Source: Arcobacteraceae bacterium
GTDB lineage: Bacteria; Campylobacterota; Campylobacteria; Campylobacterales; Arcobacteraceae
Reading direction: 5' to 3'
DNA length: 64,000 nucleotides
Assembly: GCA_048268245.1 (NCBI GenBank)
Contig: JBLWVX010000003.1
Span: forward strand, 1-64,000
Shown here: in pieces, positions 10,751 through 51,754 of the stretch
Position numbering within the stretch: position 1 is the first letter of the stretch
Layout: every line of letters starts with the position of its first letter
Translations under genes and position numbers: made by a program
Notes under the pieces: generated by a model
Seen by the model: the letters and a program-made list of their open reading frames with translations, nothing else
The model's database searches: none
Told to the model about the DNA's origin: nothing

Positions 10751-11389
10751 ATGAAAGTTATAGATAATAAAAACTACTATAAAATGAGTGAGTTAGTAGA
10801 GCAAACAAGCTTGAGTAACCACACAATCTCTTTTTATCATAAAAAAGGTTTACTACCAAATAGTTTAAGTACTTCAAAGAATATGAAGTATTATCCAGAG
10901 ATTACAATCACTGTTTTAAATATGATTAAGTACTTCAAAGATAATCTTAGTTTTTCAATAGATTATATAAAAGAGCTTTTTGACTACTATAATATAAACT
11001 TCAATGATAGAGCAGATTTAATACTCCAATCAATTCAGATGATTTCAAGTGAGATTAAAAATCCTGTTTCAAAAAAAGATTTAGAAAAGTTTAGTTTAGA
11101 AGAAGCAATAGCTTTAGACTTAGTGGATAAAAAAGATATTTATTTTAAAACAGAAGTTGAAGTAATCAAGACTTTTAATGAGTTAAAAAAATATGATATT
11201 TCAACGCAACTTATAAATGAGTATGTAACTACAAGTAAAAAATTAGCACTATTAGAAAGAGAACTTAGCTCAAAAGTTTTAGAAAAGACTGGTTTTTTAC
11301 CTGAGATTTTAGTTTTAGATATTTTAAATTCATTTAAACCATACATTTTTAATAGGTCAACTATTGAAGAGTTTAAGAAGGATGTGTAA
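10751..11389 (+). CDS. MerR-type HTH transcriptional regulator
   Basis: YKMSELVEQT..TISFYHKKGLLP..YY, then IK..FSIDYIKE. Confidence 0.85.
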   Translation: MKVIDNKNYYKMSELVEQTSLSNHTISFYHKKGLLPNSLSTSKNMKYYPEITITVLNMIKYFKDNLSFSIDYIKELFDYYNINFNDRADLILQSIQMISSEIKNPVSKKDLEKFSLEEAIALDLVDKKDIYFKTEVEVIKTFNELKKYDISTQLINEYVTTSKKLALLERELSSKVLEKTGFLPEILVLDILNSFKPYIFNRSTIEEFKKDV

Positions 11390-48391: not shown

Positions 48392-48430
48392 AAAAAAAGG
48401 AAAGAAGTTTAACTTCTTTCCTTTTTTTTT
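48392..48430. terminator. Bidirectional intrinsic terminator
   Basis: A-tract, GGAAAGAAGTT-T-AACTTCTTTCC, T-tract; lies between the DAHP synthase and the convergent ArsC/Spx gene. Confidence 0.85.
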
Positions 48431-48770
48431 ATAAAAATTTTTCTTTATATTCCTCTTCATTAAAACCAACAACTACATCATCACTTAGTTCAACTATAGG
48501 TCTTTTTAAAAGCATTGGCTCTTTACATAGCCACTCAAACTTACCTTGTTCATCAAGATTAAGCTCTTTTAACTTTAAACTTCTATATTTAGTTCCTCTA
48601 CTATTGAAAACTAAATCAATACCCGCTTTTTCAATCCAAAACTCGATAGAAGTTGAAGTAGGTGTTTCTTTTTTAGTATCAAAGAATTCTACTTCTATAT
48701 TGTTGTCCTTAAAAAACCTTAAGGCTTTTCTAACAGAGTTTCAGGTTTTAATTCCATAAACCTTAAACAT
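48429..48770 (-). CDS. ArsC/Spx/YffB-family thioredoxin-fold protein with in-frame UGA at codon 10 (candidate selenoprotein); absent from the ORF track
   Basis: RBS AAGGA, ATG at 48770: MFKVYGIKT[UGA]NSVRKALRFFKDNNIEVEFFD...P.LLKRPIVE...VVGFNEEEYKEKFL*, 113 codons, otherwise open. Confidence 0.85.
48701..48740 (-). promoter_or_regulatory. Candidate bacterial SECIS hairpin
   Basis: After UGA: ..UGUU-AGAAAAG-CCUUAA-[GGUUUU]-UUAAGG-AC-AACA; the apical loop starts with G, 22 nt after the UGA. Confidence 0.55.
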
Positions 48771-48787
48771 TGTTTTCCTTTTATTTA

Positions 48788-49078
48788 CTACTCAATAATC
48801 TTTGGAACTTTAAAGTATCCATCTTCTGACTCAGGAGCATTTTTTAAAATATGATTAGATAACTCTAAATCTTGTTTTGCAACATCTTCTCTTAAAGGTG
48901 TTCCACCTTCAACAGTGCTAAATGTAGCTTCAATTTTTGATACATCAATTTCATTTAAATTTTCAACAAAGTTAATAATATCAGCTAGTTCAGATTTTAA
49001 GTTCTCTTTTCTTGACTCATCAATCTCTAAACTAGAAAGTCTTGATAATTTCTCAATTAGTTTATCATCTACAGTCAT
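48788..49078 (-). CDS. gatC: Asp/Glu-tRNA amidotransferase subunit C
   Basis: LSRLSSL, I..FVE.L.E.D, TPLRED, NAP..DGYFKVPKIIE. Confidence 0.95.
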   Translation of the reverse strand: MTVDDKLIEKLSRLSSLEIDESRKENLKSELADIINFVENLNEIDVSKIEATFSTVEGGTPLREDVAKQDLELSNHILKNAPESEDGYFKVPKIIE

Positions 49079-49300
49079 AGTTTTCCTTATTCTTGTATAT
49101 AAAGGCGATTATATCTAAAAAGAGTTTGTAGAGGCTTTAAAGAGTAGTTATGAAAGATATATAGCTAAAATACAATAATTTTGATGATAATAAATAATAA
49201 AGTTATAAAAGTTATTTATTTAATTGTAAATAATACTTTTATGATACTTTTAAGTAATACTTAAGAATATATGTGTAACAATTACAGTAACGACATATAT

Positions 49301-49374
49301 TAGTGATAGCCAAACTTATCGTGAGGTAGGGACGGAAAGCCACGGATCTTGATGAAGATAGCCGGGTTGCATTC
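49301..49374 (+). ncRNA. c-di-GMP-I (GEMM-I) riboswitch in the 5' leader of the flp/tad operon
   Basis: GCCAAAC-TTATC[GTGA]GGTAG-GGACGGAAAGCC-ACGG-ATCT[TGATGA]AGAT-AGCCGGGTTGC matches the GEMM-I pattern (GNRA-capped P2, GACGNAAAGC, AGCCG.GTT.C); GC-rich island in AT-rich intergenic DNA. Confidence 0.88.
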
Positions 49375-49699: not shown

Positions 49700-50128
49700 G
49701 TGTTTACAATAATCTTTTATATATTTTCTACAGTTTTATCTTATACTGACTTCAAAAAATACTTAGTACCAAATAATATTTTACTTACTATGGCAATAAT
49801 GCTTTTAATATTTGGCTTTTTTGAATCGAAAATATATATAAGTTCTATTGTTTTATCTTTAGGTGTTCTTCTTTTTTTCATTATTCTTATGCTTATAAAT
49901 AGACAAATGATACTTGGTGGTGGAGATATAAAGTATATGATGCTTGTAGCACTATTTTTAGGACTAAAACCATTTGCTATTTTTTTGATAGTTACAGGTC
50001 TTCTTCAAAGCATAGTTTTATTATTTATGCAAAAAATAAGAAAAAGAAGAGTAGCTGCTATGGTACCAGTTATGTTTGTTTCTGTTATAATAGTAGATAT
50101 ATTAAATTATTTGAATATATTTTTGTAA
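49700..50128 (+). CDS. Prepilin peptidase, A24 family (TadV/CpaA-like)
   Basis: TDFKKYLVPN and GGGDIK aspartate motifs; short, with no methylase domain. Confidence 0.88.
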   Translation: MFTIIFYIFSTVLSYTDFKKYLVPNNILLTMAIMLLIFGFFESKIYISSIVLSLGVLLFFIILMLINRQMILGGGDIKYMMLVALFLGLKPFAIFLIVTGLLQSIVLLFMQKIRKRRVAAMVPVMFVSVIIVDILNYLNIFL

Positions 50129-50164: not shown

Positions 50165-51754
50165 ATGACATTAGATGATTTTAAAGATAAACTTGATTCA
50201 AATAAAGAGAATAGTATTTTAAATACGCAAATCCAAGAGGCTTTAGAACTATTTGCTGATCTTGCAAACCTAGATGATATTTCGTATTATAAGTATGAGT
50301 ATGAATATAATAATTTCTTTCATAAATTAACTATTGATAAAGATGGAAATAGACTTGAAGAAAAAAGTCATAATGAACAAAAATACAGAATAACATTGAG
50401 AAAAAATAAACTTGTATATGGATATATATCTATTAATAAGCGAATAAAATCAACTTCTATTGTAAAAAAAATTCTAAATAAACTAATAAAATATCTAGAT
50501 AAGCAAAAAGAATTAGAAAAAAAACTTTTAGGTTCTGATGTATCTTTTAATATATATTTATTTCATGATGATACTTTAGATATGTTTGCCCAAAATCTAA
50601 AAGGTGGACTAGAAGGTCTTTTTAATGTTGATGTAATTGTAGATAATTCAATTGAAAAACATATATCTTCTATTCGAAGTAAAGAGACTAAGCATATAAT
50701 TGTTTATTTAATTGATGATGAAAGAAATATCAAGAAGTATGAATCTGTAATTAAGTCATTAAATGAATTAATAATAGTTTTAGGTCCAAATGACCATAAA
50801 ATATCTATGTATTGTGGGAAACTAGGAATTCAGAACTATATTTCTATAAATGAATTTAAAGCAGAAACAATAAAAGAAATAATTCTAAATACAAGAAATG
50901 AACTTCTAAATAAAAATAAATATGGGAATAAAATTATAGCTTTAAGTGGTATTTCAGGAGGTATAGGAACTACTACTATTGGTATGAATATGTCTGATTT
51001 ACTATCACAAAATTTACCTGATAAGAATATTTTATATATTGATTTATCAACTACAAAAGCTGTTAGCAATCTATTTTTACAAAAAAATCCACTTCCTAAT
51101 AAAACTATTGTTGATTTGATTAATACAAGTGAATTTCACTTGGAAAATAATCTTCAAAATGGTTTATGTAAAGTTCGTGAAAACTTTTATTGTATTACAG
51201 GAATTCAAAAACATATAGATAAAGAGTACATAGAAAAAGATGTATTTATTAGTAAACTTTTAGAGTATGTATCAAATTCAAGTGATTATTTTAATTTTAT
51301 AATTATAGATTTAGGTTTAGCAGATGCTTCAAATCTAAAGACAACTATATATGATATTGTAAATGAAATCTGGCTTTTAACAGAAATGAATCTTCCTCAT
51401 ATTTCAAAAGTAAAAACATTTTATTCTTTAATGAAAAGAGCAGGGTTAAAGGAGAAAATATCTTTTATTGTAAACAGATATGATTCTCAAAATGCAATTT
51501 CAGTGAATGATGTAACTTCAATTTTAAATATGACAAGTGGGGACAAAATACAATTTGATAATTATAAAATCCCAAATGATTATAAAACTTTAGGTAAATG
51601 TTGGAATTACTGTGAGTTAGCAAGTGTAAGTGATAAAGACTCACTATTTATAGAGAAACTTGAAGATATTTTGAAGAAAAAAGAGTTTTATCAAAGTGAA
51701 GATAAAAAAAGAAAAGAAGGATTCTTTTCATCTTTATTTAAAAAGAGTAAATAA
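50165..51754 (+). CDS. TadZ/CpaE-like MinD/ParA-family pilus localisation protein with long N-terminal extension
   Basis: Degenerate Walker A SGGIGTTT, YIDL, FIIIDLG, IVNRYD, IPND. Confidence 0.8.
   Translation: MTLDDFKDKLDSNKENSILNTQIQEALELFADLANLDDISYYKYEYEYNNFFHKLTIDKDGNRLEEKSHNEQKYRITLRKNKLVYGYISINKRIKSTSIVKKILNKLIKYLDKQKELEKKLLGSDVSFNIYLFHDDTLDMFAQNLKGGLEGLFNVDVIVDNSIEKHISSIRSKETKHIIVYLIDDERNIKKYESVIKSLNELIIVLGPNDHKISMYCGKLGIQNYISINEFKAETIKEIILNTRNELLNKNKYGNKIIALSGISGGIGTTTIGMNMSDLLSQNLPDKNILYIDLSTTKAVSNLFLQKNPLPNKTIVDLINTSEFHLENNLQNGLCKVRENFYCITGIQKHIDKEYIEKDVFISKLLEYVSNSSDYFNFIIIDLGLADASNLKTTIYDIVNEIWLLTEMNLPHISKVKTFYSLMKRAGLKEKISFIVNRYDSQNAISVNDVTSILNMTSGDKIQFDNYKIPNDYKTLGKCWNYCELASVSDKDSLFIEKLEDILKKKEFYQSEDKKRKEGFFSSLFKKSK

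Follow-up and report, generated by a model that had tools for sequence, protein, structure and literature searches.

The 64,000-nucleotide stretch examined here (the window), from the genome of an Arcobacteraceae bacterium, carries on its minus strand, directly downstream of gatC, a frame of 113 codons in which codon 10 is UGA. This frame is very probably a genuine selenoprotein gene, encoding a protein of 113 residues with the ArsC/Spx/YffB fold that would be translated through the UGA by insertion of selenocysteine (Sec). The frame, its family, the alternation of Sec and cysteine (Cys) codons among orthologs, the Sec machinery, the conservation of a hairpin within the gene and the selection acting downstream of the UGA were all computed. 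The features of the locus are the following.

48788..49078, minus strand: gatC, directly upstream of the ArsC/Spx/YffB-fold gene and separated from it by a 17-nucleotide gap (open reading frame list, Pfam)
48776..48780, minus strand: Shine-Dalgarno-like AAGGA, 5 nucleotides 5' of the ATG at 48770-48768 (read from the sequence)
48429..48770, minus strand: candidate ArsC/Spx/YffB-fold gene, 113 codons, with codon 10 predicted to be read as Sec (sequence, translation, hidden Markov model scores)
48741..48743, minus strand: proposed Sec codon, an in-frame UGA at codon 10, in the conserved catalytic Cys column (translation, alignments)
48707..48724, minus strand: proposed selenocysteine insertion sequence (SECIS) hairpin, with 5' arm CCUUAA(G) at 48724-48719(18) and 3' arm (U)UUAAGG at 48712(13)-48707 (folding, covariation, recoding)
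48429..48431, minus strand: TAA stop of the full-length frame (sequence, translation)
48392..48428, minus strand: intrinsic-terminator-like hairpin with a U-run (folding)

The frame is complete, as a preliminary description of this DNA had stated, and it runs from the ATG through the TGA at 48743-48741 to the TAA at 48431-48429. With TGA given as U, the read-through product is MFKVYGIKT-U-NSVRKALRFFKDNNIE..., which begins MFKVYGIKT-U-NSVRKA. The open reading frame (ORF) listing contains no minus-strand ORF of at least 40 amino acids inside 48429-48770, and therefore an ordinary ORF track shows nothing at this position. The TGA at codon 10 is the reason that the gene was missed, as had been noted earlier. 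The start codon, the nine codons that precede the UGA and the stop codon are in register across orthologs.

A ribosome binding site and a terminator had also been claimed, and both are present as the AAGGA at 48780-48776 and a hairpin with a U-run past the stop codon. The latter is located between the candidate gene and a convergent gene for a class-II DAHP synthase, and it has a folding energy of -19.3 kcal/mol (z = -6.1), with none of 200 shuffled sequences being as stable. It was seen by direct folding and is not listed by a simple terminator pattern scan. The product of the upstream gene scores 68.9 bits with the Pfam model for GatC. This association is found in all 30 loci examined, regardless of whether the downstream gene carries a Sec or a Cys codon, which suggests that gatC and the candidate gene form an operon and makes their co-transcription probable.

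Alternation of UGA and Cys codons among orthologs

A search with the protein through 151 genomes from this bacterial family gave a match in 142, and exactly one in-frame TGA is found in 28 of these. Orthologs were fetched from 106 of the matching genomes, comprising all 28 TGA forms and 78 others that were taken non-randomly, down the hit list; the 36 left unfetched are Cys-type rows. Codon 10 is TGA in 27 of the 106 orthologs, TGT in 60 and TGC in 19. Nine genera contribute TGA forms, and Cys forms occur in several of them as well; the window's own genus has TGA in four species and TGT in one. Cys-type orthologs share 65-88% identity with the candidate protein, are equal in length and have the same linkage to gatC. 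Orthologs vary in whether they have a Cys at residue 82. Thus, the UGA is not unique to this strain, and the alternation with Cys codons that the preliminary description suggested looking for is indeed observed across the family.

Two members of the set depart from this pattern. The L050 representative (G064:C13) reads ...YGIKS-C-U-GVRKA, where the TGA is codon 11 and follows a TGC at codon 10. It lacks the Ser at +2 and retains the hairpin. A Cys-Sec pair at neighbouring positions would amount to another design of the active site; the example comes from a single draft genome, in which the contig ends within the gene. The L058 representative (G020:C2) is a Cys form with an in-frame TAA at about codon 104 (...VGFK-stop-DMYKETFL), which may reflect a truncation or an error.

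One possible explanation for the UGA is that an ordinary Cys-type arsC-like gene has become a pseudogene, or has been misread, through a change of TGT or TGC to TGA. The TGA is a single base away from either Cys codon, and the congener that carries TGT (G073, locus L017) has an almost identical downstream sequence, both of which are in keeping with such a change. However, the same codon is TGA in orthologs from nine genera, and the codons on both sides of it have been kept in register. Furthermore, the ratio of nonsynonymous to synonymous substitution rates (dN/dS) downstream of the UGA is 0.094-0.481 at dS values of 0.64-1.38 for ten pairs of Sec forms, an eleventh pair having been dropped because of a length difference. 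Sec forms of different genera differ mostly at synonymous sites in this region. These values show purifying selection on the part of the frame that follows the UGA, and therefore a dead gene is excluded.

Independent sequence data likewise back the UGA. A DNA contig from run X3 covers the whole 851-base stretch with seven differences, none of which are at 48741-48743. The TGA is also covered by metagenome run X9 and by a contig from an RNA library (X15, 48621-48920) that extends into gatC, although contigs are no proof of transcription and RNA libraries may contain DNA. Together, the recurrent TGA, the purifying selection and the independent contigs effectively refute a pseudogene or a base-call error, to which we assign a negligible probability.

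Selenocysteine machinery and a candidate SECIS hairpin

The genome of the window is 99.3% complete with a G+C content of 27.9%, and the machinery that the preliminary description proposed looking for (selA, selB, selC and selD) is all present. Profile searches identified selA (571 bits, C15:29339-30658), selB (293 bits, C15:30685-32499) and selD (356 bits), each with a score above its cut-off. A gene for tRNA-Sec located at C15:29177-29271 adjoins selA and is recognized both by ARAGORN and by Rfam (48.6 bits). The selD gene itself has an in-frame UGA at position 22167 of C15 in a classical G-U-A site, and fdhA on the same contig has a UGA at 11213 (minus strand) in a classical ARI-U-HSS site. 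All of the selenium genes that were found cluster within approximately 24 kb of this contig (about 8.9-32.5 kb of C15 in genome G000). This clustering may explain why some draft assemblies do not have the whole set at once.

Among the 151 genomes of the bacterial family, selA is found in 88, including 25 of the 28 that bear a TGA form. The three TGA-bearing genomes wherein selA is not found are fragmented drafts (G092, 90% complete; G103, 94%; G016, 74%), and they also yielded no selB, selD or tRNA-Sec above threshold. Orthologs of fdhA with an in-frame TGA are found in G092 (94% identity) and G103 (92% identity), and therefore these two organisms are Sec users whose sel cluster is missing from the assembly. 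With this included, selA or a UGA-containing fdhA is found in 27 of the 28 TGA-bearing genomes.

The preliminary description also pointed to a hairpin whose loop begins with G, composed of the sequences CCUUAA (48724-48719), GGUUUU (48718-48713) and UUAAGG (48712-48707). This element is present and forms a stem of 6-7 base pairs inside the coding sequence, across the codons for A-L-R-F-F-K-D. The distance of 22 nucleotides given for the hairpin holds for the loop and not for the stem, which begins 16 nucleotides past the UGA. Bacterial SECIS elements are permitted a distance of 16-37 nucleotides between the UGA and the loop. The SECIS elements of epsilonproteobacteria, as far as they are described in PMC4607533, are hairpins of 5/6 base pairs that lie a few nucleotides past the UGA and have an invariant G in the loop, and the candidate hairpin agrees with this shape.

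There is a marked difference between Sec and Cys forms in their ability to form this structure. An in-register 6-base-pair stem of -3 kcal/mol or below is predicted for 25 of the 27 Sec forms versus 12 of the 78 Cys forms, and most Cys orthologs have a weaker, AU-only hairpin. The two Sec forms that fall outside this count are L024, with a stem displaced by a single base, and L044, whose stem lacks one of the G-C pairs. Across the 27 Sec rows (19 of them distinct), 97.7% of the cells are paired, compared to 69-70% if the partner is slid by one column. Compensatory double changes occur at two pairs, C-G to U-A and A-U to G-C, with three distinct rows supporting each. All four of the sites involved are synonymous third positions (Ala GCC/GCU, Lys AAG/AAA, Leu UUA/UUG and Phe UUU/UUC), and therefore RNA pairing has been kept while the protein is untouched. 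The first base of the 6-nucleotide loop in the 6-base-pair reading (column 26) is G in all but one of the 27 aligned Sec rows. The exception is L024, wherein the hairpin lies one base later and the first base past the six-base 5' arm is again G. Thus, the hairpin is conserved among the orthologs that bear UGA, in line with the earlier proposal.

The codons that build the stem had been described as unusual for this genome, and all four are indeed rare, with GCC, AGG, AAG and GAC making up 4.9%, 5.9%, 14.1% and 13.8% of their codon families, respectively. Synonymous recodings made under the codon usage of the window's genome are as stable as the window's hairpin in 0.36% of 20,000 cases. The same usage was applied to all 19 distinct Sec sequences, for which the fraction of equally stable recodings is at most 1% in 15, 2-3.3% in two and 17-19% in the remaining two.

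Several observations weigh against our proposal that the UGA encodes Sec with the aid of this hairpin. The folding energy is unremarkable relative to dinucleotide shuffles (z = -0.01), although this test is uninformative for so short a stem, and the comparison of Sec with Cys forms, the covariation and the recoding controls were used instead. The codons of the peptide L-[KRS]-F-F-K inherently form a partial palindrome, which is why the 12 Cys forms noted above, five of them outside the clade that includes the Sec forms, also fold well. In this genome, the stems of selD and fdhA start approximately 11-13 nucleotides past the UGA rather than 16, which places the loop of the candidate hairpin 4-5 nucleotides farther away than in those genes. 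The L024 and L044 hairpins are no better than 17-19% of their recodings. The Sec forms belong to one clade, such that the counts are non-independent, and perhaps no more than two or three events underlie the compensatory changes. Finally, neither Sec machinery nor an fdhA ortholog was found in G016, whose assembly is 74% complete.

Some of these observations would also fit a different explanation, wherein the UGA is read through with an amino acid other than Sec (near-cognate Trp or Cys), or wherein termination is followed by re-initiation, and the hairpin is a by-product of the L-R-F-F-K codons. The palindromic tendency of the peptide, the folding of some Cys forms and the spacing unlike that of selD and fdhA all speak for this possibility, as does the fact that selenium at codon 10 is a prediction from sequence. 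However, the UGA falls exactly on the redox Cys column of the family, which is a classical signature of Sec, and the TGA forms are found almost only where there is other evidence of Sec use. Moreover, rare codons add to the stability of the stem, which has been kept by synonymous compensatory changes. With regard to re-initiation, there is no in-frame start past the UGA that would give a product of at least 40 amino acids. We therefore regard non-Sec decoding as very unlikely, though less remote than a damaged or misread gene.

The Sec machinery, the shared UGA, the independent contigs and the conserved hairpin thus support the reading of the gene as a candidate selenoprotein gene that was put forward in the preliminary description. 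Given these observations and the established mechanism of SelB and SECIS elements, the hairpin 16 nucleotides downstream of the UGA would recruit SelB together with Sec-tRNA(Sec). Sec would then be delivered at codon 10, which is the position of the nucleophilic N-terminal Cys of the family, and the motif U-N-S would take the place of C-x-S/T. The actual insertion of Sec, the binding of SelB, the substrate and the reductant are matters that we infer.

An Rfam gathering scan of the window yielded no SECIS-type family. Its sole match is a c-di-GMP-I riboswitch aptamer (RF01051) at 49299-49374 on the plus strand, with 58.1 bits against a gathering score of 35. This riboswitch resides in a divergent intergenic region and is located upstream of two plus-strand ORFs. 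The first (49700-50128) encodes a 142-amino acid protein that resembles type IV leader peptidases, and the second (50165-51754) encodes a protein of 529 amino acids with no Pfam match.

Family membership, likely chemistry and annotation

The read-through protein passes the cut-offs of two models, namely PF03960, the Pfam model for ArsC (68.3 bits versus 24), and TIGR01617 of NCBIfam (92.9 bits versus 75.05). The nearest solved relatives identified by phmmer are 2m46 (E = 1.2e-17) and the YffB proteins 1rw1 (1e-13) and 2kok (3e-13), with Spx being more distant. The conserved N-terminal Cys stands opposite the UGA codon in every printed alignment, be it with 1rw1 and 2kok or with 2m46 and Spx, which have CxxC. 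Of 150 distant representatives drawn from a library of 1.84 billion proteins, 136 have Cys in the same column, and among these 136 the motif is CxT in 57, CxS in 43 and CxxC in 21. These alignments bear out the earlier observation that the family motif is broken only at the redox Cys. The other representatives have W (3, corresponding to TGA under another code), lack the column (9) or carry another residue (2).

Some of the nine representatives that lack the N-terminal Cys column (P0173, P0276, P0145, P0239 and others) may represent additional UGA forms from other lineages whose gene calls are clipped at the 5' end, and several of the nine start just past this column. There are two more distant TGA forms, P0174 and P0205, that also pass TIGR01617, and therefore Sec use in the TIGR01617 branch is not confined to relatives of Arcobacter.

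The protein most likely acts as a small reductase of the monothiol type (here a monoselenol), as has been proposed for YffB, a suggestion that rests on family membership. It has a single nucleophile in the motif U-N-S without a Cys at +3, and its Cys82 varies among orthologs, which together favour a monoselenol reductase that works with an external thiol system. In such a scheme, Sec would attack the substrate or a mixed disulfide and would subsequently be regenerated by the external thiol. The scores with two more specific models count against this functional assignment, since the protein reaches 65.9 bits with the YffB equivalog NF008107 (cut-off 121) and 42.7 bits with the ArsC model TIGR00014 (cut-off 106.05).

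The nature of the reductant can be narrowed to some extent. YffB (1rw1, 2kok) has been proposed to be a glutathione-dependent thiol reductase. In the genome of the window, gshA was not found and the gshB model gave only a sub-threshold score (70 bits versus a cut-off of 299), with the bifunctional gshF lying outside this search. There is one weak match to a glutaredoxin domain. Canonical glutathione synthesis was not found, and therefore a route through glutathione and glutaredoxin is doubtful, and thioredoxin or another low-molecular-weight thiol is more likely.

Alternatively, the protein could be a true arsenate reductase (ArsC), or a regulator of the Spx type that binds RNA polymerase, rather than a YffB-like reductase. 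Public names point in this direction, with Cys orthologs called 'arsenate reductase family protein' or 'Spx/MgsR family', TIGR01617 bearing the Spx/MgsR name and the best solved relative, 2m46, being titled 'arsenate reductase, putative'. However, the score with TIGR00014 falls far below its cut-off, and the Spx models give 33.1 versus 123 (NF002459), 28.1 versus 159 (NF009210) and 22.3 versus 152 bits (NF009885). In addition, the protein has U-N-S-V and no CxxC, and its neighbours are gatC, which is linked at every locus examined, and the DAHP synthase gene, with no ars genes among them. We therefore consider either of these functions to be improbable.

ArsC-like selenoproteins had been mentioned as already reported for some bacteria, and this is correct (PMC1088965; PMC2398784; PMC13188914, in the portions of these papers that were available). 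Selenoproteins with the ArsC fold have been predicted since 2005 under the name 'arsenate reductase', with a UxxS motif and assignment to COG1393/pfam03960 (PMC1088965, Sargasso Sea, 2005; PMC2398784, Global Ocean Sampling, 2008; PMC9312934, a review). This UxxS family has been assigned to TIGR00014 in a 2026 review (PMC13188914). A second family, called 'arsenate reductase 2' or 'arsenate reductase-like', has a UxxC motif and corresponds to cd03032 and NF041106 (PMC2398784; PMC13188914).

The present protein resembles the UxxS family, as described in the accessible parts of these sources, in its PF03960 fold, in the use of Sec for the N-terminal nucleophilic Cys, in the absence of a second Cys from the motif and in a downstream SECIS with a loop G. 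It differs in having U-x-S rather than U-x-x-S, and its best match is TIGR01617, followed by YffB below the cut-off, rather than TIGR00014. With the UxxC family it shares, to judge from the same sources, a small ArsC/Spx fold, Sec at the first redox position and a gene that callers often miss or clip. Unlike that family, it is a monoselenol protein with U-N-S-V that lacks a resolving Cys at +3, and it scores 30 bits with the selenoprotein-specific model NF041106 (cut-off 85).

There are also Cys-containing proteins that are close to the candidate. YffB of Pseudomonas aeruginosa (1rw1) and 2kok are similar in length (approximately 113-120 residues) and have the motif YGIK-x-C-x-T/S-x-KKA with its Cys on the UGA column, whereas the present protein has Sec in place of this Cys, falls below the YffB equivalog cut-off and comes from a genome wherein gshA and gshB were not found. 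Cys-type orthologs from relatives of Arcobacter, such as WP_128996364.1 ('arsenate reductase family protein'), share identity, length and gatC linkage with the candidate, and differ in having TGT or TGC at codon 10 and, in most cases, the weaker hairpin.

A search of the literature on selenoproteins of Arcobacter and on YffB with Sec uncovered no description of this gene. The terms 'ArsC' and 'arsenate' are absent from the main text of PMC4607533, a 2015 study of the epsilonproteobacterial selenoproteome whose supplementary tables S2 and S3 lay outside this check, and TIGR01617, PF03960, YffB and UxS do not occur in the available part of PMC13188914. The U-x-S, YffB-like branch in relatives of Arcobacter fails both published family models and was not found in print in these searches.

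The database record gives a similar picture. Among the 120 best hits in a large protein collection (P0002-P0121), 59 are unnamed translations from short contigs in which TGA is rendered as Trp, with W at position 10. Neither a name nor an accession was obtained for six clusters of TGA forms checked by exact-sequence look-up, a method that is blind to records bearing U. The Cys form WP_128996364.1, unlike these clusters, was named in the same look-up. The gene is probably unannotated, and a public annotation with Sec is possible given that U-bearing records are invisible to the look-up.

History and significance of the UGA forms

A quick maximum-likelihood tree was computed on an alignment of 106 rows and 111 columns that omitted the Sec column. 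It groups every one of the 27 Sec forms with 19 Cys forms in a single clade of 46 rows (SH-aLRT 81), and the rows outside this clade are all Cys. At least seven changes of state are required on the tree. The simplest reading, on a weakly resolved tree, is that Sec was gained once and later gave way to Cys again several times. Of the 12 Cys forms that have a stable hairpin, seven are found inside the Sec clade (L017, L038, L041, L042, L059, L061 and L063), and the hairpins of these seven fit the notion of fossil SECIS elements.

Perhaps these genes constitute a third branch of ArsC-fold selenoproteins that has not been catalogued, defined by a YffB-like monoselenol U-x-S/T motif, placement within TIGR01617 and linkage to gatC. 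Sec would have arisen once in relatives of Arcobacter, wherein a palindrome pre-existing in the codons of the conserved peptide L-K/R-F-F-K would have been turned into a SECIS as synonymous substitutions brought in rare codons ending in G or C, and several lineages would later have reverted to Cys while keeping fossil hairpins. We offer this history tentatively, judging its prospects of being correct to be slightly below even. If true, these orthologs would form a compact natural series on the birth of a SECIS inside a coding sequence and its later decay.

The findings involve no new decoding mechanism and no new kind of protein. They correct the annotation of a gene that is missed wholly by plain ORF finding, and they indicate that translations with TGA as Trp hide selenoproteins under a wrong residue. 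The YffB-like U-x-S branch would join the UxxS and UxxC families in the catalogue of ArsC-fold selenoproteins, in a lineage that has cultivable members, such that labelling with 75Se and exchanges between Sec and Cys are feasible. Moreover, Sec and Cys orthologs are mixed within genera and some of the Cys forms retain the hairpin, which provides a comparative set for the exchange of Sec and Cys and for the evolution of SECIS elements.

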